Assembly: GCA_018897195.1 (NCBI GenBank) | Contig: JAHILH010000001.1 | Coordinates: 28,565-92,564, forward strand | Direction of reading: 5' to 3' | Source: Patescibacteria group bacterium | Lineage (GTDB): Bacteria > Patescibacteriota > Patescibacteriia > Patescibacteriales > UBA12075 | Length of the DNA stretch: 64,000 nt | Shown: piece by piece, positions 2,731 through 57,421 of the stretch | How the letters are laid out: every line of letters starts with the position of its first letter | How positions within the stretch are numbered: the stretch's first letter is position 1 | Program-made: the position numbers and the translations under genes | The notes under the pieces: generated by a model | Databases searched by the model: none | What the model was told of the DNA's origin: nothing | Seen by the model: the letters and a program-made list of their open reading frames with translations, nothing else

Positions 2731-2767
2731 CTCCCTCGCCCCGGCGGGAGAGGGTTGGGGTGAGGGG
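2731..2767. mobile_element. family A repeat, solo left hairpin end (A1)
   Basis: CTCCCTCGCCCCGGCGGGAGAGGGTTGGGGTGAGGGG, 9 nt after stop of 2099..2722. Confidence 0.85.
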
Positions 2768-4700: not shown

Positions 4701-4728
4701 GAATATTATAAGTGACGAGGTGTTTAAG

Positions 4729-4783
4729 CTCCCTCGCCCCGAAAACTACCTCACCCTAACCCTCTCCTGGCAAGGAGAGGGAA
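4729..4783. mobile_element. family A repeat, short internally deleted form (A2)
   Basis: CTCCCTCGCCCCGAAAACTACCTCACCCTAACCCTCTCCTGGCAAGGAGAGGGAA; near-identical to A10; ends 7 nt before ATG 4790. Confidence 0.85.
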
Positions 4784-5520: not shown

Positions 5521-5558
5521 TCTCCCTCTCCCCGCCGGGAGAGGGTTGGGGTGAGGGA
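5521..5558. mobile_element. family A repeat, solo left end (A3)
   Basis: TCTCCCTCTCCCCGCCGGGAGAGGGTTGGGGTGAGGGA, 9 nt after stop of ABC ATPase gene. Confidence 0.85.
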
Positions 5559-11626: not shown

Positions 11627-11661
11627 CCCTCGCCCCGGCGGGAGAGGGTCGGGGTGAGGGG
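11627..11661. mobile_element. family A repeat, solo left end (A4)
   Basis: CCCTCGCCCCGGCGGGAGAGGGTCGGGGTGAGGGGG, 13 nt after GH5 stop. Confidence 0.85.
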
Positions 11662-11835: not shown

Positions 11836-12117
11836 ATGGCAAAAATGACAAAGTCACAAATGCTAGCAGCCTTAGTTGAAACTACAGGTTTAGCAAAAAA
11901 AGATGTAACTAGCTTGGTTGAAAACTTGACCGAATTGGCTTACAAAGAAGTTAAGAAAAACGGTGAATTCTCAATTCATGGCATCGGCAAATTGGTAAAA
12001 ATGAAACGCGCTGCTAGAATGGGACGAAACCCTGCTACAGGCGAAACAATCAAAATCCCTGCAAAGACTGTTGTTAAATTCAGAGTTGCAAAAGCAGCTA
12101 AAGACGCAGTACTTTAG
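11836..12117 (+). CDS. hup: HU family DNA-binding protein
   Basis: 93 aa; GIGKLVKMKRAARMGRNPATGETIKIPAKTVVKFRVAKAAKDAV; TTGGCA-17-TATAAT promoter and strong terminator. Confidence 0.9.
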   Translation: MAKMTKSQMLAALVETTGLAKKDVTSLVENLTELAYKEVKKNGEFSIHGIGKLVKMKRAARMGRNPATGETIKIPAKTVVKFRVAKAAKDAVL

Positions 12118-12133
12118 GACTCAATATAATATC

Positions 12134-12170
12134 AAAAAAAATTCCACCGTAATGGTGGAATTTTTTTGTT
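12134..12170. terminator. terminator after hup (A-run/T-run flanked)
   Basis: ATTCCACC/GGTGGAAT stem, AAAAAAAA upstream, TTTTTTTGTTGTTTTTT downstream. Confidence 0.8.
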
Positions 12171-12217
12171 GTTTTTTGATATAGCCTTGATTAATATAAA
12201 TAAGTTTGCCATTGCAT

Positions 12218-12334
12218 TCTCCCTCTCCCCGCCGGGAGAGGGCTGGGGTGAGGGAACATTGTTAAAATACCACATATCTAATATTCTTCGTCCGTTCTAC
12301 CTCACCCCGACCCTCTCCTGCAAAGGAGAGGGAG
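12218..12334. mobile_element. family A repeat, full two-ended copy (A5)
   Basis: Left TTCTCCCTCTCCCCGCCGGGAGAGGGCTGGGGTGAGGGA ... right CTACCTCACCCCGACCCTCTCCTGCAAAGGAGAGGGAG. Confidence 0.85.
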
Positions 12335-12377
12335 TTAATGCCAATCATGTATTGTGCATGAGTCTCTTTTTGTTATT

Positions 12378-19180: not shown

Positions 19181-19225
19181 AAAAAACTCCTCCCGGGTTC
19201 GCCCGGGGGGAGTTTTGATTTTTAT
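19181..19225 (+). terminator. strong terminator after surface protein gene
   Basis: AACTCCTCCCGGG/CCCGGGGGGAGTT stem, TTCG loop, TTTGATTTTT. Confidence 0.9.
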
Positions 19226-19230
19226 ATATC

Positions 19231-19361
19231 GTCATTCTGGAAGGAGCCGGGGCGACTGATAGAATCTTCCGATGTTTAAACGACGAAGTAAATTATAATA
19301 ACAAATTTTTTTAAAACAATTGAAGATTCTATCTCTGCGCTACGCTTCGTTCCAGAATGAC
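19231..19361. mobile_element. family B repeat, ORF-less copy (B2)
   Basis: GTCATTCTGGAAGGAGCCGGGGCGACTGATAGAATCTTCCGATGTTTAAA + 32-bp AT centre + AAAACAATTGAAGATTCTATC...CGCTTCGTTCCAGAATGAC. Confidence 0.9.
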
Positions 19362-20505: not shown

Positions 20506-20997
20506 ATGTTAAAACTAAATATGAAAAAAATTGCCAAAATTTTTGGCTATGTTGTGTTAGCAGTAGTAGTACTGCTTTTTTTATTACTAATCTGGACCAA
20601 GCGGAAGATTGATAATGGGGAGATGGTGAAGTGGAACGGGAAGTGGATGACCCAAGAAGACTTCCACAAAATCGTCCCACCGCAGGTTTATAAGGTGGAG
20701 TCAAAGAACAAACCAGAAGAAGTCTACACAGCCTTTCGCCAGGCATTATTGGATGATGATGTAGAGAAGGCTTTGGGGTTGGTGAGAGTGGAGAAGAGGG
20801 CGAAATTTGCGGAGGTGTTTAAGGATAAAAAGATGTTGGAGAATTATAAGACATTGCCTGTGGTTGAGAAAATTATTAAGTCAGAAAAGGATAGTTATGA
20901 AAATATTTCATCATTTTATTACAGGGAAAATGAAAAGGTTTATTCTGTTGAATTTATAAAAAATAAAGACGGCTACTGGGAAATAGACCAGATATAA
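20506..20997 (+). CDS. membrane-anchored protein, unknown function
   Basis: N-terminal TM IFGYVVLAVVVLLFLLLIW (alternative start ATG 20521); near-consensus promoter at 20452-20479. Confidence 0.55.
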   Translation: MLKLNMKKIAKIFGYVVLAVVVLLFLLLIWTKRKIDNGEMVKWNGKWMTQEDFHKIVPPQVYKVESKNKPEEVYTAFRQALLDDDVEKALGLVRVEKRAKFAEVFKDKKMLENYKTLPVVEKIIKSEKDSYENISSFYYRENEKVYSVEFIKNKDGYWEIDQI

Positions 20998-21002
20998 ATT
21001 AT

Positions 21003-21407
21003 GTCATTCTGGAAGGAGCGGATGCGACTGATAGAATCTTCCGATGTTTAAAATATGCGCGAAAGAAAATATTACGTATATATTTCAACCAATAAAAACA
21101 ATGAAGTTTTGTATGTAGGAGTAAGCAATAGCATGATTAGAAGATCTTGGGAGCACAAGAGCAAGGTTTATGATAATAGTTTCACGGAAAAATATAACAT
21201 AAACAAGATGGTGTATTATGAAATTTGGGGCGATGTTAAACAGGCGATATTTAGAGAAAAACAGATTAAAAATTTACTTCGAAAAAAGAAAATAGACTTA
21301 ATAAACAAAGTTAATCCATCATGGGTTGATGTGATGGATATGATTGAATAAAAAATTTAAACAATTGAAGATTCTATCACTACGCTTACGCTTCGTTCCA
21401 GAATGAC
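21003..21407 (+). mobile_element. family B repeat carrying GIY-YIG ORF between its arms (B3) - candidate autonomous element
   Basis: Arms ~90% identical to B2; ORF 21055-21351 begins 1 nt after left arm and stops ~7 nt before right arm. Confidence 0.8.
21055..21351 (+). CDS. small stand-alone GIY-YIG nuclease (COG2827/UPF0213-like), nested inside family-B repeat
   Basis: 98 aa; YYVYI...LYVGVS...RRSWEH...YYEIW...REKQIK matches GIY-YIG core; ORF fills the space between the two arms of element B3. Confidence 0.85.
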   Translation: MRERKYYVYISTNKNNEVLYVGVSNSMIRRSWEHKSKVYDNSFTEKYNINKMVYYEIWGDVKQAIFREKQIKNLLRKKKIDLINKVNPSWVDVMDMIE

Positions 21408-21422
21408 AAAAAAATAATTCTT

Positions 21423-21470
21423 GTCATTCTGGAAGGAGTCGGGGCGACTGATAGAATCTTCCGATGTTTA
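21423..21470. mobile_element. family B solo left arm (B4)
   Basis: GTCATTCTGGAAGGAGTCGGGGCGACTGATAGAATCTTCCGATGTTTAA, 15 bp after B3 and 10 nt before ATG 21481. Confidence 0.85.
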
Positions 21471-21480
21471 ATTTAAATTT

Positions 21481-25915: not shown

Positions 25916-26794
25916 TTACTTACTTTGAATGATTACTAATCTATCCAATCCCGCTAAATCTTTTTTGATCTCAATCTTAACATCACCTAATTTCTCTTTG
26001 ATTAATTTCGTAATACCCTCACTCTGACTAGCATCAATCTCGCATAAAATCACATACTCAACACCAGTCTTTATTGACCCTATTTGCTCGAACAGCTCAC
26101 GATAATATTGTAAGCCGTCATTGCCCGCTACCAGTGCCAAAACCGGTTCTTGCCGTATTGTAGGCGAATTTTCGACCTGTTCGGGGGTAAGATAGGGGAG
26201 ATTAGCGGTAATTATGTATTTTTTCCTATTTTCTTGGTTAAAAATGGGCAAAACCGGTTCCAAAAGATTACCTTCAAAGAATTTAATTTTGTGGTCCAAC
26301 TTGTATAAGTTGGCATTTTTTTTGGCAATAAATAATGCTTTTTTTGAGATGTCGATGGCGAAGATTTGAATAGTGTCCGTAAGCTTGTCATTCTTTTTTA
26401 GTTCATTAGCAATCGTAATCGGAATGCAACCGGAGCCAGTACCGACATCAATCAAGGTGATGTTGTTATTTGTTGTGTTTTGTAAAGCCTCCTCAATCAT
26501 CATCTCCGTCTCTGGTCGTGGTACTAAGACATTTTCATTTACACAAAAATCATAGCCATAAAATTCTTTATGTCCGACAATGTGCGCAATGGGCACGCCC
26601 TTGATTCTGAGTTTAATCGCTTTGTTGAGTCGTCCGCTCTGCGAGAGATTCAATTTTGTCTTCGGATAAGTGAAAAGGAATTCTTTTTCTTTGTCTAAAA
26701 CAAAACAAAGCAACGCTTCGGTGTCGAGTCGAGGCGTTGCAGAAAAAGCTTTTAGTTTTTCAGTGTTGAATTTTAGGGATTCTAAAATGGTCAT
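25916..26794 (-). CDS. prmC: release-factor glutamine N5-methyltransferase
   Basis: SAM motif IDVGTGSGCI, catalytic NLPY (NPPY variant); directly downstream of prfA. Confidence 0.85.
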   Translation of the reverse strand: MTILESLKFNTEKLKAFSATPRLDTEALLCFVLDKEKEFLFTYPKTKLNLSQSGRLNKAIKLRIKGVPIAHIVGHKEFYGYDFCVNENVLVPRPETEMMIEEALQNTTNNNITLIDVGTGSGCIPITIANELKKNDKLTDTIQIFAIDISKKALFIAKKNANLYKLDHKIKFFEGNLLEPVLPIFNQENRKKYIITANLPYLTPEQVENSPTIRQEPVLALVAGNDGLQYYRELFEQIGSIKTGVEYVILCEIDASQSEGITKLIKEKLGDVKIEIKKDLAGLDRLVIIQSK

Positions 26795-26803
26795 ATATTT
26801 TCT

Positions 26804-26970
26804 GTCGTCCCCGCGAAGGCGGGGATCCAGGTGCCACAGAGAGTGTGATAATAATTATAGAAACTAATCTAGATATAAATATTGATAATAAAAATACTCT
26901 GTGATTTAAATTCTCCTTAGTCTGAAAGCGTTATGCGAGGGACCTGGATTCCCGCCTTCGCGGGAATGAC
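26804..26970. mobile_element. family C repeat (C2) wedged between prfA and prmC
   Basis: GTCGTCCCCGCGAAGGCGGGGATCCAGG ... CCTGGATTCCCGCCTTCGCGGGAATGAC; 9 nt from prmC start and 8 nt from prfA stop. Confidence 0.9.
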
Positions 26971-26978
26971 GAATGTGA

Positions 26979-30094: not shown

Positions 30095-30982
30095 ATGTCA
30101 AATCAAGTCGAACAACATAATGAAGTCCAGGAAATGCCTGAAGCAACAGAGGTGGCAGGGACACATGAGACACAAACAAAATCTGAACATGGACACACTC
30201 TTTATGCTGAAGAAGTTGCCAATGTTGGTGGTTTTCCAATTACTAATTCTATGATTAATACTTGGATGGTGGTGGCGGTTGTGTTGATTTTTGGCTTATT
30301 TATCAGAAAAAGAATAAAGGAAGTGCCAACTGGCTTGCAAAATGTGATGGAAATGGTGGTTGAGGGGTTTTTGGGGATTTTTGACTCGGTGACTAGTTCT
30401 CGAGAGAAGTCTTTGCAGTTTTTTCCGTTTGTATTTAGTTTTTTTATTTTAATATTATTGAACAACTGGATGGGCTTGTTGCCTGGCATTGGTTCAATCG
30501 GTAAAATGGTTACCGAAAATGGGCACGAAGTATTCGCGCCTTTTTTTAGAGGTGGCACTGCTGACTTGAATACAACTTTAGCTTTAGCGATTATTGGTGT
30601 GGTGGCGAGTCACATTTTTGGTGTGGTGGCCTTGGGTTGGTGGCGTTATTTGAATAAGTTTGTTAATATTAAAGCGATTTTGGATATTCCAAAGAAAGTT
30701 ATGAAAGATCCGACCGTGTTGATTGTAAATCCGATTCATGTATTTGTTGGCTTGATTGAAATTGTGGGCGAAATTGCCAAAGTAGCTAGTCTTTCTTTCC
30801 GTTTATTTGGAAATGTTTTTGCTGGTGAAGTTTTATTGGCGTCGATGGCAGCAATCCTGGCTTTTGGTTTACCGATTCCGTTTATGTTTATGGAGGTAAT
30901 TGTTGGTGTAATTCAGGCGTTAATTTTTGCTATGTTGATTTTGGCATATTTGACTATGAGCACAACATCAGAAGATCATTAA
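30095..30982 (+). CDS. atpB: F0F1 ATP synthase subunit a
   Basis: LSFRLFGNVFAGEVLL signature with essential Arg; multi-TM. Confidence 0.9.
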   Translation: MSNQVEQHNEVQEMPEATEVAGTHETQTKSEHGHTLYAEEVANVGGFPITNSMINTWMVVAVVLIFGLFIRKRIKEVPTGLQNVMEMVVEGFLGIFDSVTSSREKSLQFFPFVFSFFILILLNNWMGLLPGIGSIGKMVTENGHEVFAPFFRGGTADLNTTLALAIIGVVASHIFGVVALGWWRYLNKFVNIKAILDIPKKVMKDPTVLIVNPIHVFVGLIEIVGEIAKVASLSFRLFGNVFAGEVLLASMAAILAFGLPIPFMFMEVIVGVIQALIFAMLILAYLTMSTTSEDH

Positions 30983-30989
30983 TTTTCTT

Positions 30990-31084
30990 GTCATTCTGGA
31001 GCGAAGCGATAGAATCTTCGACTACGTAAAAAACGTACAAAGTGAAAGGTTCTATCACTGCACTTCGTTTCGTTCCAGAATGAC
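30990..31084. mobile_element. family B repeat (B6), between atpB and atpE
   Basis: GTCATTCTGGAGCGAAGCGATAGAATCTTCGACTACG ... GGTTCTATCACTGCACTTCGTTTCGTTCCAGAATGAC; starts 8 nt after atpB stop. Confidence 0.9.
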
Positions 31085-31952: not shown

Positions 31953-32139
31953 CTCCCTCGCCCCGGCGGGAGAGGGTCGGGGTGAGGGGTGGTCGGATGA
32001 GAATAGTAAGTAAAAAGTTTATTAAAATAAAATCAGTGGTGAATCGCTTGTATAGCGCACGGAAAACTACCTCACCCTGTCCCCTTTATTATTGTTCGGA
32101 CGAGGATTACGTTAACCCTCTCCTGGCAAGGAGAGGGAA
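31953..32139. mobile_element. family A repeat, full copy with extra ~40-bp insertion in right end (A7), between atpF and atpH
   Basis: Left CTCCCTCGCCCCGGCGGGAGAGGGTCGGGGTGAGGGG ... CACGGAAAACTACCTCACCCT[insert]AACCCTCTCCTGGCAAGGAGAGGGAA. Confidence 0.85.
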
Positions 32140-32150
32140 CTTAAATTGTT

Positions 32151-36499: not shown

Positions 36500-36532
36500 T
36501 AAAGACGAAGAGCATTGATAAGCTCCCTCGCC

Positions 36533-36645
36533 CCGGCGGGAGAGGGTCGGGGTGAGGGGTTGTCGGAAGAGAATCCCCAATAAAAATCCTGATCATTTCA
36601 CAGAAAACTACCTCACCCTAACCCTCTCCTGACAAGGAGAGGGAA
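36533..36645. mobile_element. family A repeat, full copy (A8), between atpD and atpC
   Basis: Left end identical to A7/A9 through GGGGTTGTCGGAAGAG; right end CTACCTCACCCTAACCCTCTCCTGACAAGGAGAGGGAA. Confidence 0.9.
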
Positions 36646-37664: not shown

Positions 37665-37697
37665 TGAAAAAATCAAATTTTAATTATGAATATATTT

Positions 37698-37792
37698 GTC
37701 ATCCTGGAGCGAAGCGATAGGATCTTCGACTACGTATAAAACGTACAAAGCGGAAGATTCTATCACTGCACTTCGTTACGTTCCAGAATGAC
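37698..37792. mobile_element. family B repeat (B7) in groES 5' leader
   Basis: GTCATCCTGGAGCGAAGCGATAGGATCTTCGACTACG ... GAAGATTCTATCACTGCACTTCGTTACGTTCCAGAATGAC; near-identical to B6. Confidence 0.9.
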
Positions 37793-38117: not shown

Positions 38118-38240
38118 CTCCCTCGCCCCGGCGGGAGAGGGTCGGGGTGAGGGGTTGTCGGAAGAGTGTTGTGCTTAAAAAGAATATTTTGTGCACGGAA
38201 AACCACCTCACCCTAACCCTCTCCTGGCCAGGCGAGGGAA
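38118..38240. mobile_element. family A repeat, full copy (A9), between groES and groEL
   Basis: CTCCCTCGCCCCGGCGGGAGAGGGTCGGGGTGAGGGGTTGTCGGAAGAG ... CACGGAAAACCACCTCACCCTAACCCTCTCCTGGCCAGGCGAGGGAA. Confidence 0.9.
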
Positions 38241-42466: not shown

Positions 42467-42480
42467 AGAGAGGTGTTATT

Positions 42481-42533
42481 CTCCCTCGCCCGAAAACTAC
42501 CTCACCCTAACCCTCTCCTGGCTAGGAGAGGGA
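42481..42533. mobile_element. family A repeat, short internally deleted form (A10), between two GT2 genes
   Basis: CTCCCTCGCCCGAAAACTACCTCACCCTAACCCTCTCCTGGCTAGGAGAGGGAA. Confidence 0.85.
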
Positions 42534-42547
42534 ATAAATTATTGTAT

Positions 42548-43345
42548 ATGACAAATATAAGTATCGTAATATTAAACTACAAACAAAAAGGTTTTGTGAT
42601 GAGTTGTTTGAAGTCAATTAGTGAGGCTGATTGGAGTGGATTGACTCACGAGGTGATTGTGACTGATAATAACTCCGACGATGCCTTGGGGGAGATTTTG
42701 GCGTGGCAGAATCCAGAGGTCAAATTTATCCAGAATGGCGCTAATTTGGGTATGGGAGCAGGTAATAATGCTGGTATTAAACAAGCAGTGGGTGATTATG
42801 TAGTGATAATGAATCCAGACACCTTGGCACAGTATGATACTTTTCAAAAACTTTATGCCTATATGGAGGCAAATAAAGAGGTTGGAGTGGTGGGACCAAT
42901 GCAGTTGAATCCAGATCAATCGATTCAGGACTCTTGTTATCGTTGGCATTCTTTTTTGACTCCGCTTTATCGGCGCACACCTTTGGGCAAATTACCTTGG
43001 GCGCAAAAGGATGTTGATAATTTTTTGATGAAAGATTTTAATCATCAGACGATTCGAGAGGTTGATTGGTTGTTGGGATCATTTTTATTTTGTCGCAAGA
43101 GCGCCTTGGATGAGATTGGTTATTTTGATGATTTGTTTTTTCTGTATTTTGAAGATACGGATTTGTGTCGGCGCTTCTGGCAAAAAGACTATAAGGTTGT
43201 TTATAATCCGGAGGTAAAAATAATTCATAATCATGCGCGCCAAAGCGCGCAGACGGCTTGGTATAAGTTTTTTACAAACAGAACCACGCGTTGGCATATT
43301 GCTTCGTGGTTGAAATACACTTGGAAGTGGGGATTTAAAAATTAA
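42548..43345 (+). CDS. family 2 glycosyltransferase
   Basis: Start at ATG 42548 (track N-terminal extension is translation of repeat A10); ISIVILNYKQKG...VTDNNSDD...NLGMGAGNN...MNPD...YFEDTDLCRR. Confidence 0.8.
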   Translation: MTNISIVILNYKQKGFVMSCLKSISEADWSGLTHEVIVTDNNSDDALGEILAWQNPEVKFIQNGANLGMGAGNNAGIKQAVGDYVVIMNPDTLAQYDTFQKLYAYMEANKEVGVVGPMQLNPDQSIQDSCYRWHSFLTPLYRRTPLGKLPWAQKDVDNFLMKDFNHQTIREVDWLLGSFLFCRKSALDEIGYFDDLFFLYFEDTDLCRRFWQKDYKVVYNPEVKIIHNHARQSAQTAWYKFFTNRTTRWHIASWLKYTWKWGFKN

Positions 43346-43357
43346 TTATATTCCTAC

Positions 43358-43526
43358 GTCATTCCCGCGAAGGCGGGAATCCAGGCGCTACAGACCTTGA
43401 GTACATAATTATAGAGACTAATCTTAATATAAATATTGATAATAAATAATACTTCGTAAATTTTAATTCTCCTTATCCTGAAAACAATCTGCGAGGTACC
43501 TGGATCCCCGCCTTCGCGGGGATGAC
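43358..43526. mobile_element. family C repeat (C3) between GT2 and galU
   Basis: GTCATTCCCGCGAAGGCGGGAATCCAGGCGCTACAG ... CCTGGATCCCCGCCTTCGCGGGGATGAC. Confidence 0.9.
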
Positions 43527-43539
43527 GGATGAAAAATAT

Positions 43540-46767: not shown

Positions 46768-46979
46768 GTCATCCTCGGGCTTGTGTCATGGAGCATAAAC
46801 TCCTGACTATACAAAAAGTCTTTGACTTTTATAACCCGGGGATCCAGGAGTTAATAAAATTAAAGGTAAAAAATTATTTCGAAAGAGTGTGAGTTAAATT
46901 CAAAATATAATTATAAATAAGTCTCTATATCTAAATTCATTATTCGTGGCACCTGGATTCCCGCTTTCGCGGGAATGAC
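46768..46979. mobile_element. family C repeat (C4) with ~55-bp insertion in left hairpin loop, between murA and PEGA gene
   Basis: GTCATCCTCGGG[insert]CCCGGGGATCCAGG ... CCTGGATTCCCGCTTTCGCGGGAATGAC. Confidence 0.8.
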
Positions 46980-46986
46980 GAGGTAT

Positions 46987-50101: not shown

Positions 50102-50287
50102 GTCATTCCCGTCCCCAGTCAAGCTGAGGATAAACCTCCGGCGGGAATCCAGGCTCCACCACGAGGGCGTGTTTAATTATAGAAATCTATATAAAAGAAG
50201 ATTAAATTTAATATTTTATTAAAAATTTTTTAATATATCTAAAATCGTTATTCGAGGTACCTGGATCCCCGCCTTCGCGGGGATGAC
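50102..50287. mobile_element. family C repeat (C5) with 28-nt insertion in left hairpin loop, between rplI and pyrG
   Basis: GTCATTCCCG[TCCCCAGTCAAGCTGAGGATAAACCTCC]GGCGGGAATCCAGG ... CCTGGATCCCCGCCTTCGCGGGGATGAC. Confidence 0.9.
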
Positions 50288-50309
50288 GTGCAATTTCGAT
50301 ATTTTTTTT

Positions 50310-51998: not shown

Positions 51999-52052
51999 CT
52001 CCCTCGCCCCGGCGGGAGAGGGTCGGGGTGAGGGGGCGTCGAAGAGTGTTTT
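51999..52052. mobile_element. family A repeat, left end plus adjacent conserved segment (A11)
   Basis: CTCCCTCGCCCCGGCGGGAGAGGGTCGGGGTGAGGGGGCGTCGAAGAGTGTTTTG, 19 nt after pyrG stop. Confidence 0.85.
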
Positions 52053-52215
52053 GAAATAAAATAATATACTCGGCACTAAACTCGTCAGAGTCCTCACGGA
52101 GAGACTCTGACGGAACCAAAAGATCAAATAACAATTAATTTATTAATAGCTATTTTCAGTTTTATATTGGGCAAATACTTGAAATAAAATTATTAACACA
52201 AAAGATGGGTGTCGG

Positions 52216-52488
52216 CCTCCCTCTCCTCTGTAGGAGAGGGTCGGGGTGAGGTAGAGCGTGCGAAGATAATTTTATGGAAAAATTATATAATTAACCACAA
52301 CAAAAAAATATTCGTAAAATTTTAAGACGGCAACCAAATACTTGCGAACTAATATTGTGGGAAAGAATTAGGGATAGACAATTGGATAATTTTAAATTTA
52401 AAAGACAATGCAGTATCGGTAAATATGAGGAGGCGAAATTAAGTAATGCTCCCTCACCCCGACCCTCTCCCGGCGGGGCGAGGGAGAG
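52216..52488. mobile_element. family A long copy with inverted ends (A12/A13) enclosing DUF559 gene remnant
   Basis: Left CCTCCCTCTCCTCTGTAGGAGAGGGTCGGGGTGAGG; right CCTCACCCCGACCCTCTCCCGGCGGGGCGAGGGAG (reverse complement of the left-end type). Confidence 0.75.
52295..52426 (+). pseudogene. remnant of DUF559 (Vsr-like endonuclease domain) gene, N-terminal ~44 codons only
   Basis: In-frame IRKILRRQPNTCELILWERIRDRQLDNFKFKRQCSIGKY resembles DUF559 N-terminal region (xRxLRxxxTxxExxLWxxLRxRQxxxxKFRRQxxIGxY); similarity ends 22 bp before repeat end A13. Confidence 0.6.
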
Positions 52489-52574
52489 TGCATTGGCAAA
52501 CTTCTTATTATATTTATTCAAAACCGTATATTATACACATGAACCGAATATAGCATAATAGATGTAAAAAATAT

Positions 52575-54966: not shown

Positions 54967-55959
54967 ATGAAAAAGTCAATATTAAAGCCAGTTGATGCGG
55001 TTATCGCGATTACTTACCAATGTAATTCGCAGTGCATTATGTGCGGTATTTGGAAAAAGAAAGAAATGCCCGCAATGCAAGCGGAGGATTTTTTGGCATT
55101 GCCGAAAAGTCTGGTTGATTTGAATATTTCTGGTGGAGAGCCATTTTTGCGTGCCGATTTGCCGGATTTTGTGAGCAAAGCGAAGGAGTGTTGTTCTGAT
55201 GTGAATATTATTATTTCGACCAATGGTTTTGCGACTGCTTTAATTGTGACGCAAATGGAAAAGATCTTAAAGATTGATCCGGAGATTGGTGTAGCGGTTT
55301 CCATTGATGGACTGGAGGAGGTACATAATCAAGTGCGCCGAATTGAAAATGGTTTTAATAAGTCAATGGCGACGATTGCAGAATTGAAAAAAATGGGTGT
55401 AAAGAAAATTAAAATCGGTTTTACGATCGCAGATTACAACTATCAAGAATTACGGAAGGTTTATGAGTTGTCGCGCGAGCTGGGTGTCGAGTTGAGTTTG
55501 TCTTTGGTGCATTCGTCGGAGAATTTTTTTAGTCAGGAAAATAAGGTTGATAAGAAGAATGAAATAATCGAACAACTCGAATGGTTGATAGGTGAGGAGC
55601 TAAAAACCTGGAATCCGAAGAAATGGGCACGTGCTTATTATACTTATGGCATGATTCAATATATAAAGACAGGCAAAAGAATCTTGCCTGATTATTCTGG
55701 TCAGTCGAGTATTTTTATTGATCCGAATTGTGATGTTTATCCGAGCGATATTTCTAGTAATAAAATTGGGACAATCAAAAATAAATTCATCATCAGTGCG
55801 CCAGCAACGGTAACGGAGGGGTGGATGATTTGTACGGCGCGTCCAGCGATTAAAAAACATTGGGCAAGGGCGATTTTTTGGATATTGAGAAATAAATTTT
55901 ATTCATTCGTCATTCCCGCGAAGGCGGGAATCCAGGCGCCACAGATGATGGATGTATAA
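54967..55959 (+). CDS. radical SAM enzyme
   Basis: CNSQCIMC (CxxxCxxC) cluster motif, GGEPFL; last 16 codons and the stop codon lie inside repeat C6 (tail residues VIPAKAGIQAPQMMDV). Confidence 0.8.
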   Translation: MKKSILKPVDAVIAITYQCNSQCIMCGIWKKKEMPAMQAEDFLALPKSLVDLNISGGEPFLRADLPDFVSKAKECCSDVNIIISTNGFATALIVTQMEKILKIDPEIGVAVSIDGLEEVHNQVRRIENGFNKSMATIAELKKMGVKKIKIGFTIADYNYQELRKVYELSRELGVELSLSLVHSSENFFSQENKVDKKNEIIEQLEWLIGEELKTWNPKKWARAYYTYGMIQYIKTGKRILPDYSGQSSIFIDPNCDVYPSDISSNKIGTIKNKFIISAPATVTEGWMICTARPAIKKHWARAIFWILRNKFYSFVIPAKAGIQAPQMMDV

Positions 55960-56100
55960 TTATAGAGACAAATTTAATAAAAATATTAATCATAAATAAC
56001 ACTTCGTAAATTTTAATTCTCCTTATATTGAAAACAATCTACGAGGTACCTGGATCCCCGCCGGAGGTTTATCCTCAGCTTGACTGGGGACGGGGATGAC
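55909..56100. mobile_element. family C repeat (C6) with the same 28-nt insertion, reverse-complemented, in right hairpin loop
   Basis: GTCATTCCCGCGAAGGCGGGAATCCAGG ... CCTGGATCCCCGCC[GGAGGTTTATCCTCAGCTTGACTGGGGA]CGGGGATGAC. Confidence 0.9.
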
Positions 56101-56110
56101 GGAAAAAGAT

Positions 56111-57316
56111 ATGAAAATCTTACAAATCAACAAATTTTTTTACTTAAAGGGTGGCAGTGAACGGCATTTTTTTGCGGTCTCGGATTTGTTGCGTCAAAAC
56201 GGACACGAAGTGGTGGAGTTTTCTATGAATGACAGACGTAATCGGCCGAGTGTTTATGCAGATTTTTTTATTGGAGAAATTAATTATTCTAAAAGTTTTT
56301 TGAGCAATATATTTAAATTTTTATATAACTTTGATGCGAATCGTAAATTGGCAAAATTGATCAAGCAAGAAAAGCCGGAGGTGGCGCATTTGCATAATAT
56401 TTATCACCAGTTATCGCCCTCGATAATTCACACCTTGAAAAAACACAAGATTCCGATGGTGTTGACTTTGCATGATTACAAAGTGATTTGTCCGAATTAT
56501 CAACTATTTAACAAGGGTGAGATTTGTGAGAAGTGTAAGGGCGGGAAGTATTATAATTGTTTTTCGGGAAGTTGTATTAAGAATTCCCACGAAAAAAGTT
56601 TGCTAGGCGCGCTGGAAGCGTATTTACATCGCGATGTTTTGCAGTCCTATGAAAAGATTGATAAGTTTATTGCACCTAGTTATTTTATCAAAAATAAATT
56701 CATTGAATTTGGAGTTGATGGTGCGCGAATTGAAGTGATTGAAAATTTTACCGAGATGATGTCTGATAGTTCAGCCGAAGCGACAGGGGATTATCTGTTG
56801 TATTTTGGGCGCTTGTCCAAGGAGAAGGGCGTGAATGTTCTATTGGATGCAATGCATGATGTTGATGATGTGAAATTAAAAATTGCTGGTGATGGTCCGG
56901 AAAAAGAGGATTTTCAATTGGCGATTAAGAATTTTAAATTAGGCACTCGGGTGGAATTTGTTGGTGAAAAAAGTGGCGATGAATTGAATAATTTAATTAG
57001 AAAGGCAAAGGCGATTGTGGTGCCGTCAGTATGGTATGAAAATATGCCGATGAATATTTTGGAAGCCGTGGCCATGGGCAAGGTGATTATTGCTTCACGC
57101 GTGGGTGGGATTCCGGAGATAATCGAAGACAAGGAGAACGGTTTTTTGTTTCGAATGAATGATACCGATGATTTAGCGTTAAAAATTGATGATTTACAAA
57201 ATAATGATTTAACAATGATTGGCCATCAAGCCTGGCTTGATTCGAAGCGGTTTAGTGCTGATATTTATTTTGGGAAGTATATGGAGTTAATCAAAAAGAT
57301 AATTATAAAAGAATAG
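56111..57316 (+). CDS. GT4 (group 1) glycosyltransferase
   Basis: MKILQINKFFYLKGGSERH; C-terminal EGIPMNILEAVAMGKVIIASRVGGIPEII-type E-x7-E region; track start 56096 is inside repeat C6. Confidence 0.85.
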   Translation: MKILQINKFFYLKGGSERHFFAVSDLLRQNGHEVVEFSMNDRRNRPSVYADFFIGEINYSKSFLSNIFKFLYNFDANRKLAKLIKQEKPEVAHLHNIYHQLSPSIIHTLKKHKIPMVLTLHDYKVICPNYQLFNKGEICEKCKGGKYYNCFSGSCIKNSHEKSLLGALEAYLHRDVLQSYEKIDKFIAPSYFIKNKFIEFGVDGARIEVIENFTEMMSDSSAEATGDYLLYFGRLSKEKGVNVLLDAMHDVDDVKLKIAGDGPEKEDFQLAIKNFKLGTRVEFVGEKSGDELNNLIRKAKAIVVPSVWYENMPMNILEAVAMGKVIIASRVGGIPEIIEDKENGFLFRMNDTDDLALKIDDLQNNDLTMIGHQAWLDSKRFSADIYFGKYMELIKKIIIKE

Positions 57317-57327
57317 TATATAATTCT

Positions 57328-57421
57328 GTCATCCTGGAGCGGAGCGATAGGATCTTCAAATGTTTAAAAATATTTAAACAGCGGAAGATTCTATCAATCG
57401 CTTCGCTTCTTCCAGAATGAC
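57328..57421. mobile_element. family B repeat (B8), between GT4 and flippase genes
   Basis: GTCATCCTGGAGCGGAGCGATAGGATCTTC ... GAAGATTCTATCAATCGCTTCGCTTCTTCCAGAATGAC. Confidence 0.9.

Follow-up and report, generated by a model that had tools for sequence, protein, structure and literature searches.

Organization of the 52195–52505 segment

The window analyzed here is a 64,000-nucleotide stretch of AT-rich (38.7% GC), Patescibacteria-like host DNA, and at 52195–52505 it contains a fragment of a DUF559 gene bracketed by two inverted repeats of about 34 nucleotides. The repeats lie at 52219–52252 (+) and 52451–52484 (-), 198 bp apart, and each is built as an intrastrand triplex motif (TM): a pyrimidine (Y) arm and a purine (R) arm with a loop between them, then a short second loop and a G-rich third segment, a mirror copy of the R arm. 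Part by part, the upstream TM reads CCCTCTCCT-ctgt-AGGAGAGGG-tcg-GGGTGAGGT, with a predicted hairpin energy of -10.3 kcal/mol (z -2.1). The downstream TM appears on the + strand as CCCTCACCC-cga-CCCTCTCCC-ggcg-GGGCGAGGG; read on the - strand it is of the 'mm' type, CCCTCGCCC cgcc GGGAGAGGG tcg GGGTGAGGG, with -16 kcal/mol (z -3.2). Both energies were calculated with ViennaRNA and refer to the hairpin only. The ends of the element are AAGTTTGCCAATGCAC-type. The initial annotation recognized the left end correctly but began it at 52216; the first three bases are surplus and the repeat begins at 52219. Outside the repeats lie two flanks, one at 52195–52218 (+, …AGATGGGTGTCGGCCT) on the 5' side and the other at 52485–52505 (AAGTTTGCCAATGCACTC as read on the - strand).

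The third strand of the upstream TM is followed by a leader, AGAGCGTGCGAAGATAATTTT (52253–52273, +), that runs to the start codon of a pseudogene of the Vsr-like PD-(D/E)XK family DUF559 (52274–52426, +), identified by profile matches, translation and alignment. The frame first noted, 52295–52426, translates to PQQKNIRKILRRQPNTCELILWERIRDRQLDNFKFKRQCSIGKY, and its similarity to DUF559 stands, but the ORF starts further upstream at the ATG at 52274 (MEKLYN*PQQKN...), with an in-frame TAA at 52292–52294 in between; two relatives (L086 and L095) have Leu at the same place. The similarity is significant, since the remnant matches Pfam PF04480 (DUF559) with E=1.9e-8 and 34.5 bits against a cut-off of 20.6, over profile positions 4–44 of 109; the matches to NCBIfam PRK09767 and to a custom HMM have E=9e-5 and E=1.4e-18, respectively. 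Homology runs out at IGKY, just ahead of VDF, and stops at 52426, 24 bp short of the right repeat. The ORF is not intact and is devoid of the catalytic core VDF…ExDG…H. The nonsense codon and the missing core bear out the earlier view that the gene is decayed and internally deleted, the nonsense codon and the internal deletion being the lesions that took the core out of this copy. The 52274–52426 copy is, to judge from these lesions, a pseudogene fragment and no functional member of DUF559, and the window feature by itself is a functionally inert pseudogene. In the 24-bp junction that follows (GAGGAGGCGAAATTAAGTAATGCT, 52427–52450, +) the frame stays open into the repeat, and alignment suggests that the junction may preserve part of the ORF's 3' end, left when an internal deletion removed what lay before it without changing the frame. 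The NCBI annotation of the locus is an 82-aa 'DUF559 domain-containing protein' whose product runs through the right repeat, and a word-indexed protein search with the remnant returned this product of the same genome as its sole match. Weak DUF559 HMM matches at 12005–12181, inside an HU-like gene, and at 56147–56320 were rejected as noise.

It is well supported that in segment 52195–52505 a compact cassette, a DUF559 nuclease gene between two inverted TMs, survives as a dead copy. As a statement of anatomy alone, its description as a decayed TM-DUF559 cassette is in our judgment very probably correct.

TM doublets and solo TMs in the window

With up to 3 mismatches allowed, the window has 16 occurrences of the 19-nt core GGAGAGGGTCGGGGTGAGG, compared with none in 100 shuffles. 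A TM finder called 15 TMs, every one with the same 9-triad Y/R/mirror-third architecture; the third segment mirrors the R arm through G·G, A·A or T·A triads at 9/9 triads, with 0–1 mismatch, in 15/15 copies. Doublets and solo TMs are found mostly 10–25 nt past gene stop codons. Solo copies lie at 2733–2766 (+) and 5523–5557 (+), each 10 nt past a stop codon, at 11627–11660 (+), 12 nt past a stop codon, and at 52001–52034 (+), where a type 1, mm copy is located 20 nt past the stop codon of pyrG. A separate PyrG search returned a contig in which PyrG and the gene spacing are the same.

Type 1 TMs (TCG/TTG loop, +) pair with type 2 TMs (TTA loop, -) in two doublets, one at 36525–36643 (+; TMs at 36525 and 36610), 25 nt past a gene stop codon, and one called by the TM finder at 38120–38238 (+; TMs at 38120 and 38205). 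The long copy at 31955–32144 (+) comprises a type 1 TM, about 80 bp, and a type 2 TM split by an insertion of about 32 bp; a DUF559 remnant was sought in all frames of this copy and was absent. At 4725–4781 (-) a type 2 TM runs directly into CTCCCTCGCCCC, the outermost 12 nt of a type 1 TM, and the copy is therefore a doublet with an internal deletion. The copy at 42476–42532 (-) is built in the same way, its type 2 TM being joined to what is left of a type 1 Y arm.

The doublet most informative for the DUF559 element spans 12202–12358 (+) with its outer flanks and has TMs at 12220–12254 (+) and 12299–12332 (-). Alignments show that it has both ends, the outer flanks (about 18 nt on the left, 25 nt on the right) and the 5' leader in common with the DUF559 element: 52195–52218 corresponds to 12333–12358, 52485–52505 is near-identical to 12202–12219, and the leader is kept at 12299 as TAGAACGGACGAAGAATATT and continues on the - strand into ATGTGGTATTTTAAC (MWYFN, cf. 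MEKLYN). Because of these common parts, the doublet at 12220–12332 is identified as a nested-deletion derivative of the DUF559 element, with a larger internal deletion. The earlier proposal that the short copies are nested deletions of a master copy therefore holds for at least this one. That the scattered doublets and solo TMs are further-reduced relatives of the cassette is well supported, and demonstrable for 12220–12332.

The doublets could also be read in the opposite direction. The TMs would then be an independent repeat population, maintained by the host or spread in some other way, and DUF559 a selfish gene of the homing type whose target is the stretch between two inverted TMs, so that doublets would be empty sites and not deletion derivatives. 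Doublets and cassette share the inward-facing geometry that this requires, DUF559 is related to a homing endonuclease, and TMs far outnumber DUF559 genes (15 TMs to one remnant in the window, 23 TMs to one gene in E. coli K-12). An empty site would, however, not be expected to keep the leader, start codon and MWYFN-like N-terminus of DUF559, as the doublet at 12220–12332 does, and intact cassettes described below bear on the same point.

Identity of the repeats

Repeats called BoxC, PIT or TMECO have been known from E. coli since the 1990s and mark unstable loci; we know of no established origin, partner protein or function for them. The initial annotation grouped the window repeats as a 'family A' and did not recognize them as known. 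Their near-identity in sequence indicates that they are not new and correspond, nearly base for base, to the BoxC/PIT/TMECO intrastrand triplex motif of E. coli. The E. coli motif reads CCCTCGCCCC-TTT-GGGGAGAGGG-TTA-GGGTGAGGGG (Holder et al. 2015, PMC4666352), and window copies such as CCCTCGCCC-CGGC-GGGAGAGGG-TCG-GGGTGAGGG and CCCTCTCCT-TGCC-AGGAGAGGG-TTA-GGGTGAGGT are almost identical to it. The consensus CCCTCNCCC-N3-6-GGGNGAGGG-N3-GGGNGAGGG (Holder et al. 2015, PMC4666352) is fitted by both ends of the element and by most of the other 13 window copies; the exceptions are the copies at 5523 and 12220, which were called with a 1-nt second loop. In type 2 window copies the ninth triad ends in T/A/T and not in C/G/G. 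E. coli and the window alike have two loop-2 types, an 'mm' variant and an intergenic location, and in both the inverted doublets pair one type with the other (A+B in E. coli, type 1 with type 2 in the window). Unlike the published repeats, one pair in the window brackets a DUF559 remnant, and the host is Patescibacteria-like. A search of the window against Rfam at gathering thresholds gave no match.

Published work on these repeats describes no associated gene, and the main survey says that mobility functions did not turn up near TMs (PMC4666352). Triple helix formation has been shown in vitro with E. coli oligonucleotides only (PMC4666352). The E. coli triplex motifs were the subject of Hoyne et al. 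2000, as cited in PMC4666352. In vivo work by Maher and co-workers, summarized in PMC4666352, detected no influence of PIT elements on promoter activity, termination or conjugation.

Linkage of DUF559 genes to TMs across bacteria

DUF559 has very many members and counts as a family of 'unknown function'; to our knowledge no transposase activity is known for it. One search for DUF559 loci used the 44-aa fragment lengthened by 6 consensus residues. Full-length genes in CPR/Patescibacteria and many other phyla have inverted ends of the same kind, as the initial annotation had anticipated. Among 155 DUF559 loci from many phyla, a TM lies within about 200 bp in 76% and on both sides in 51%, compared with 9/224 (4%) and 0/224, respectively, for control ORFs at the same loci. 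The two sets that make up this sample agree. In the genome set a TM is found within about 200 bp in 63/83 loci and on both sides in 40/83, with 3.9 TMs per kb near the DUF559 gene versus 0.116 per kb far off; in an independent metagenome set the corresponding values are 55/72, 39/72, 3.4 and 0.108. The linkage is oriented, with the upstream TM in '+' orientation in 39 loci versus 15 (genome set) and 40 versus 4 (metagenome set), and the downstream TM in '-' orientation in 37 versus 12 and 37 versus 13; a minority of cassettes in both sets have the opposite TM orientation. In about a quarter of the DUF559 loci the finder detected no TM, in some of them because the second loop is too long for it.

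The third segment of asymmetric purine arms is a mirror copy of the arm and not a direct copy: with 37 distinct asymmetric arms, 52 third segments scored as mirror and 16 as direct (14 of which also scored as mirror), and 5 scored with shuffled arms. In viral contigs DUF559 is rare, and TMs flank 2/18 strong matches and 0/53 weaker relatives; viral contigs were considered as a vector of the cassette and rejected, and they serve as a negative control that reveals no transfer route.

Solo TMs are common in the window, and two of them could in principle have inserted independently around an unrelated, decaying DUF559 gene. This reading is extremely improbable and effectively refuted by the 0/224 control ORFs with TMs on both sides, set against 51% of 155 DUF559 loci; moreover, both ends recur together with their outer flanks at 12202–12358. 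The link between DUF559 and TMs appears to be unreported: our literature search retrieved no paper tying DUF559 to these repeats, within a coverage that excludes most subscription journals, so that a prior description is possible. Repeats flanking DUF559 across many phyla may give the orphan BoxC/PIT repeats a candidate partner enzyme, and because the linkage is reproducible, oriented and cross-phylum, the question of a partner becomes directly testable.

Intact cassettes

A 444-bp unit consisting of a TM, an ORF (ATG…118 aa…TAA) and a second TM is 77–87% identical among three loci (L088, L107 and L144) whose flanks are unrelated. Homology extends 2 bp beyond the upstream TM on one side and about 12 bp beyond the downstream TM on the other. 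In register-matched cassettes the TM arms are 97–100% identical and the coding cores 70–85%, whereas the loops vary, and the downstream TM is as strongly conserved as the upstream TM. The catalytic-core residues D38, E49, D51 and H55 are near-invariant in DUF559 alignment A1, most members of which come without flank data. Genes into which a whole cassette has been inserted in frame are hsdS, hsdM, type III mod, type ISP, Eco57I-like genes and murD; an MmeI-like gene has one at its C-terminal end. The linkage explains the DUF559 'domains' within restriction-modification genes, the presence of a whole in-frame nuclease cassette in the essential gene murD, and the low-complexity PSPxGEGxGE peptides with which many annotated DUF559 proteins begin or end; the PLSPxGRGxGEG-like peptides mentioned in the initial annotation are genuine read-through translations of TM repeats. 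For the reading of doublets as empty homing sites, it matters that the homology among L088, L107 and L144 takes in both TMs and that the TMs in hsdS, mod and murD belong to the insert and not to the uninterrupted gene family. Together with the leader kept at 12220–12332, these observations make that reading unlikely.

The features expected of a transposon are found in part. TMs plus about 18–25 nt of flank form terminal inverted repeats shared by 52195–52505 and 12202–12358, and portability is evident from the 444-bp unit at unrelated loci and from the in-frame insertions. Target-site duplications were sought at the L088, L107 and L144 boundaries, where no direct repeat was seen, and around the window TM copies, where none was recognized. 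To speak of an 'autonomous' element with 'MITE' derivatives, as was done initially, goes beyond these data, since both words imply that DUF559 is the enzyme that mobilizes the repeats.

The E. coli member of the family, ycjD, ends in a BoxC-like hairpin and has TMECO no. 9 about 165 bp downstream. It is present in 3378/5426 E. coli genomes and absent from 38%. A pair of empty and filled sites was sought at this locus and not found: in O157:H7, the one ycjD-less genome inspected, the eef efflux locus is in place with no TM there, and since the locus is taken by eef it offers no clean empty site.

The only in vivo datum on a DUF559 protein concerns Caulobacter VsrA, which causes an SOS response in the absence of a cytosine methyltransferase; this was read as m5C-linked mismatch repair and not in terms of repeats (PMC12907096). 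DUF559 might accordingly be a domesticated repair nuclease, active in Vsr-type T:G repair or in processing hairpin or triplex obstacles, that lies near TMs through an action on them beneficial to the cell, with the methyltransferase fusions reflecting a Vsr-Dcm-like link. Besides the VsrA result, the many in-frame fusions to restriction-modification methylase genes, the single-copy state of ycjD in E. coli and the capacity of 'mm' TMs to fold, by prediction, as a hairpin holding a G·T wobble would agree with such a role. The fused methylases are, however, of N6-adenine or N4/N6 types, for which T:G repair has no relevance; one and the same cassette is found in unrelated surroundings and inside murD; and neither the loss of ycjD from over a third of E. 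coli genomes nor decayed copies such as 52274–52426 would be expected of a maintained host gene. We regard a host function as very unlikely to be the explanation.

A possible mechanism

The association invites a mechanism in which DUF559 would mobilize the repeats. In intact cassettes the purine-rich third strand of the upstream TM would occupy the Shine-Dalgarno position, the median distance from its end to the start codon being 8 nt. The cassette would usually lie directly downstream of a co-oriented host gene (such an ORF ends 0–80 nt ahead of it in 47/84 loci), so that the nuclease could be expressed via read-through transcription. This idea fits poorly with the main subfamily of the window, where, by the polarity inferred from the remnant, the lost gene and the upstream host gene would lie on opposite strands. 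DUF559 would then recognize TMs, either as sequence or as a hairpin or triplex extruded on single-stranded or supercoiled DNA, and nick or cut there. Through subsequent break repair, or through strand transfer from one TM copy to another, cassettes and gene-less derivatives alike would spread and become homogenized. Such a scheme would be akin to REPIN-RAYT or to a homing endonuclease, with a PD-(D/E)XK nuclease and triplex-forming ends. Also counting against the mechanism are the negative in vivo results on PIT elements, the reading of the VsrA result as mismatch repair, the DUF559 loci without a detected TM, the minority of cassettes with the opposite TM orientation, and the searches for target-site duplications and for a pair of filled and empty sites, which found none.

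Several of the same observations would suit TMs that are simply cis signals of the DUF559 gene, the upstream copy for ribosome binding or translation control and the downstream copy as a structured 3' end. The cassette would then move by an unrelated route, and dispersed TMs would be inert scars of gene deletion, not mobilized in trans. The Shine-Dalgarno distance of the third strand, the nested deletion series in the window and the failure to find target-site duplications are all in keeping with this. Yet the window has six type 1 TMs that agree in every base across about 36 nt and differ in their flanks, which suggests recent copying, conversion or selection in preference to old scars; the mirror-repeat covariation of the third segment seen with the 37 arm types would be needless for a ribosome-binding site; and the downstream TM is conserved to the same degree as the upstream one. 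We therefore consider cis signals and scars an improbable account of the whole.

That DUF559 acts on TMs and propagates them is, in our view, a realistic possibility that falls somewhat short of probable. Extended to bacteria at large, the same proposal would make DUF559 nucleases the partner enzymes of BoxC/PIT triplex repeats and a previously unrecognized class of selfish element that recognizes triplex or hairpin ends and copies itself and its doublets; we advance this tentatively, on comparative sequence evidence. Taken as one whole statement, a dead TM-DUF559 cassette plus the proposed mechanism seems to us slightly on the probable side. A partnership of DUF559 with TMs, if true, would account for the origin of the repeats, for their sequence conservation across phyla and for the 'genomic instability' associated with them.

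Comparison with known systems

RPEs, the Rickettsia palindromic elements, are in-frame selfish insertions in protein genes. The TM-DUF559 cassettes are similar in that repeat-derived peptides (PSPxGEGxGE…) lie in frame in hsdS, hsdM, mod and murD and leave the ORF unbroken. They differ in having repeats of the triplex type and an insert that may include an entire nuclease domain.

When the DUF559 profile was compared with known structures it matched 3hrl, itself a DUF559 protein (6.6e-37), and the homing endonuclease I-Bth0305I (3r3p, E=3e-4). I-Bth0305I (PDB 3r3p; PMC3239194) and DUF559 belong to one nuclease superfamily, and both are encoded by small, selfish-looking genes that are at times inserted within conserved genes. 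In contrast to I-Bth0305I, the DUF559 gene is bracketed by structured repeats and not by a self-splicing element.

Another parallel is with REPIN-RAYT. REPIN-RAYT systems have GC-rich hairpin repeats scattered between genes and forming inverted doublets, and a flanked nuclease gene that is often single-copy; they are not known to make target-site duplications. TM-DUF559 likewise has short, GC-rich intergenic hairpin repeats with recurrent inverted doublets, a nuclease gene between inverted repeat copies, and no target-site duplication seen. The enzyme of REPIN-RAYT is an HUH/Y1 transposase of the IS200 type, whereas that of TM-DUF559 is a Vsr-like PD-(D/E)XK nuclease, so that the gene defining REPIN-RAYT membership is replaced here by DUF559. 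Also unlike REPIN-RAYT, the TM has a third, mirror-repeat segment with triplex potential, and cassettes occur in frame inside genes as well. The resemblance is one of logic only, and what is at stake is a second REPIN-RAYT-like partnership in bacteria, with another nuclease fold and a non-B DNA structure.

The repeat and the DUF559 remnant

Each copy of the repeat that the initial annotation called family A consists, in order, of a pyrimidine arm, a 4-nt loop, a complementary purine arm, a second loop and a G-rich segment that mirrors the purine arm, with A corresponding to A or T. In the window the second loop measures 1–3 nt, with 13 of the 15 copies having 3 nt, and all 15 conform to a 9-triad version of the scheme. 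Judged by sequence, family A is the BoxC/PIT/TMECO intrastrand triplex motif (TM), so that the repeat itself is already known; the window copies are nearly identical to the E. coli TMECO, with the consensus CCCTCNCCC-N3-6-GGGNGAGGG-N3-GGGNGAGGG (Holder et al. 2015, PMC4666352), and share its features. In E. coli the second loop distinguishes two types, TTA and CCG, the ‘mm’ variant CCCTCGCCCC is frequent, and the five inverted doublets (two inverted TMs without a gene) each combine type A with type B without exception (PMC4666352). The window likewise contains two loop types, type 1 (TCG/TTG) and type 2 (TTA), as well as the ‘mm’ variant. Inverted type 1 plus type 2 doublets are located at 36525/36610 and 38120/38205, and in the inverted doublet at 12220/12299 the second member carries TCG instead of TTA. 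Most TMs in the window lie 10–25 nt downstream of stop codons of plus-strand genes, and the 19-nt TM core occurs 16 times with up to three mismatches in this AT-rich, Patescibacteria/CPR-like sequence (38.7% GC), versus 0 in 100 shuffles.

The DUF559 element (52195–52505) is bounded by an upstream TM at 52219–52252 on the plus strand (CCCTCTCCT-ctgt-AGGAGAGGG-tcg-GGGTGAGGT) and a downstream TM at 52451–52484 on the minus strand (reverse complement of CCCTCGCCC-cgcc-GGGAGAGGG-tcg-GGGTGAGGG). The reading frame from 52295 between them translates to PQQKNIRKILRRQPNTCELILWERIRDRQLDNFKFKRQCSIGKY, which matches positions 4–44 of the 109-position Pfam DUF559 profile at 34.5 bits (E=1.9e-8), above the curated threshold of 20.6 bits. 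The proposed DUF559 gene remnant between inverted family-A ends is thus upheld, with both ends located, and its 44-codon similarity is significant in the search with PF04480. Alignment with full-length relatives places the original start at ATG 52274 (MEKLYN…) and reveals a TAA at 52292 in place of a Leu present in the relatives L086 and L095 (L-numbers denote loci retrieved from other genomes and metagenomes); similarity ends at IGKY, which directly precedes the VDF…ExDG…H catalytic core. The internal TAA and the loss of similarity before the core indicate that the copy at 52274 is a pseudogene fragment, a dead copy; NCBI annotates an 82-aa DUF559 protein here that runs through the right repeat. 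A separate perfect hairpin (GTCAGAGTC…GACTCTGAC) is present at 52078–52112, between the single TM following pyrG and the DUF559 element.

Deletion derivatives and other repeats in the window

The doublet at 12220–12332 can be aligned to the DUF559 element at both ends. On one side the two have in common AAGTTTGCCA(A/T)TGCA(C/T)TC followed by the TM, and on the other the TM, the leader TAGA(G/A)CG..CGAAGA and an outer flank of about 25 nt; the leader of the doublet is followed by an ATG with an MWYFN-like start, comparable to the MEKLYN of the DUF559 element. Because ends, leader and outer flanks are shared, the doublet is this element after a more extensive internal deletion, and for this copy the idea of nested deletion of a DUF559-bearing repeat was borne out. 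Two further doublets, at 4725–4781 and 42476–42532, have lost most of the type 1 TM. At 31955–32144, a type 1 TM is followed after about 80 bp by a type 2 TM with an insertion of about 32 bp between hairpin and third strand.

Two other repeat families were observed. One is GC-rich and MITE-like, with units of about 200 bp and inverted CGTCATTCCCGCGAAGGCGGGAATCCAGG-type ends that encode ‘IPAKAGIQ’-like peptides in spurious ORFs (units 237–448, 26774–26971, 43328–43539 and 55879–56062; partial copies 46930–46980 and 50140–50288). This family has no relationship to the TMs and probably corresponds to the other nuclease-and-hairpin case of the initial annotation. The second is intergenic (GTCATTCTGGAAGGAGC…GATAGAATCTTC…) and occurs at 19222–19279, 20994–21051, 21414–21471, 30982–31032, 37690–37740 and 57320–57370.

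Linkage of TMs and DUF559 across bacteria

A tblastn search of plasmids with the fragment identified DUF559 genes in Synechocystis, Sinorhizobium and Sphingomonas, bracketed by TMs in 3/3. In the Sphingomonas parapaucimobilis plasmid (L003, 1400–1880), the TM-flanked gene separates sufB from sufC in the Fe-S cluster operon. From named genomes representing many phyla we retrieved 80 DUF559 loci, in which TMs were called with a purpose-written finder. A TM was located within about 200 bp of the DUF559 domain in 63/83 loci, and on both sides in 40/83; the independent metagenome set (72 usable loci) gave 55/72 and 39/72. TM density near the DUF559 gene was 3.9 per kb versus 0.116 per kb farther off in the genome set, and 3.4 versus 0.108 per kb in the metagenome set. 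Among control ORFs from the DUF559 loci, 9/224 had a TM nearby and 0/224 had TMs on both sides, which excludes chance adjacency. Distant DUF559-like genes on viral contigs had TMs at 2/18 strong and 0/53 weak matches, so the finder does not fire trivially. The upstream TM was oriented with its third strand adjoining the gene in 39 versus 15 loci of the genome set and 40 versus 4 of the metagenome set, and the downstream TM was inverted in 37 versus 12 and 37 versus 13, respectively. The link between TMs and DUF559 is general; it includes 11/12 CPR loci of the genome set, and close relatives of the fragment, for example L095, L098, L148 and L042, have the same TM arm sequence as the window.

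The cassette as a portable unit

A 444-bp segment is common to three loci (L088, L107 and L144), at 77–87% identity, and is embedded in unrelated DNA on both sides. Homology extends from 2 bp before the upstream TM to about 12 bp past the downstream TM, the sequence being ATCCTCCTCCCCT-GCAA-AGGGGAGGAG-TTA-GAGGAGGGGT-ATG…(118 aa)…TAA-ACCACCCCTC-GG-TCCCCTCCT-TGGC-AGGAGGGGA-GGAT, and the unit begins 2–6 nt past the stop codon of a co-oriented upstream gene. No target-site duplication is visible at these three loci. Such boundaries characterize the TM-DUF559-TM cassette as a discrete, portable unit. Across DUF559 loci, the median distance from the end of the third strand to the first in-frame start codon is 8 nt, and a co-oriented ORF ends 0–80 nt upstream of the cassette in 47/84; both features fit expression by read-through, in which the purine-rich third strand would serve as ribosome-binding site.

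Whole cassettes also occur in frame within host genes, with repeat-coded peptides (PSPxGEGxGE…) as linkers. The host genes are hsdS, where the cassette lies between both specificity domains (L083, L017), type III mod (L047, L031), hsdM (L025), genes for a type ISP enzyme (L012) and an Eco57I-like enzyme (L036), and the essential gene murD, which is interrupted (L065); in an MmeI-like enzyme (L043) the cassette is at the C-terminal end and not inside. In mod, the insertion point is identical between Bacteroidales (L047) and Gastranaerophilales (L031).

In E. coli, the DUF559 gene is ycjD; its 3′ end is a BoxC-like hairpin, followed at a distance of about 165 bp by TMECO no. 9. Between the ycjD stop and TMECO no. 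9 (K-12 NC_000913.3, 1351204–1351420; L084 7204–7420) we observed a truncated second copy of the ycjD 3′ end (…ETVLENIRQGLNR…) and then a decayed TM, both being tandem remnants of DUF559 cassettes. Among complete E. coli genomes, 3378/5426 have the gene. One genome lacking ycjD, O157:H7 (L166), was inspected against K-12; its sapF-fabI interval is occupied by a TetR/RND efflux (eef) locus and contains no TM.

Conservation and folding of the three-part motif

TM arm sequences vary among lineages, and the third segment tracks the purine arm as its mirror image. Where hairpins had clearly asymmetric purine arms, the third segment was a mirror in 52, covering 37 distinct arm sequences, a direct copy in 16 (14 of them counting as mirror too), and a match to the shuffled arm in 5. 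In register-matched comparisons, TM arms are 97–100% identical between cassettes whose coding cores are 70–85% identical, and the loops differ. On this sequence evidence, mirror third segment and conserved arms fit the requirements of an intramolecular purine-motif triplex (G·G:C, A·A:T, T·A:T), a kind formed by DNA and not RNA (literature summarised in PMC4666352). ViennaRNA, which models hairpins and not triplexes, gives –10 to –16 kcal/mol (z –2.1 to –3.2) for the hairpin part alone. It also predicts, for mirror-symmetric BoxC-type arms only, as in the ‘mm’ TMs at 52001–52034, 52451–52484 and others, an alternative pairing of the pyrimidine arm CCCTCGCCCC with the third segment GGGGTGAGGG into a 13-bp stem with a single G·T wobble. 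G·T is the mismatch recognised by Vsr.

Possible mechanism and comparison with known systems

Linkage, orientation bias, portability, three-part conservation and the deletion series are established observations. By the mechanism that we propose, DUF559 would recognise TMs and cut at them, and the cassette and its derivatives would then be spread through repair or strand transfer among copies of the TM. This mechanism is favoured by the membership of DUF559 in the Vsr nuclease superfamily, one member of which is a homing endonuclease (PMC3424549); the DUF559 profile matches 3hrl at 6.6e-37 and 3r3p at 3e-4. Also in favour are the nearly invariant catalytic-core positions of the DUF559 alignment, the DNA damage caused in vivo by a Caulobacter DUF559 protein (PMC12907096) and the instability of TM loci in E. 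coli, where triplex formation in vitro has been reported as well (PMC4666352). Counting against it, TMs are oriented the other way round in some cassettes, roughly one in four DUF559 loci gave no TM call, and no pair of empty and filled sites was found for the cassette; landing-pad, footprint and host-repair models are the rivals to spreading of TMs by DUF559.

Repeat and protein family are each known separately, and their partnership appears to be undescribed: full-text search, covering few subscription journals, found no paper linking them. The principal TM paper states explicitly that no associated gene, whether for a transposase, an integrase or another mobility function, was ever found near TMs (PMC4666352). 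The TM-DUF559 cassette follows a logic similar to that of REPIN-RAYT systems or of homing endonucleases, in a form where the enzyme has another fold and the ends are of the triplex type.
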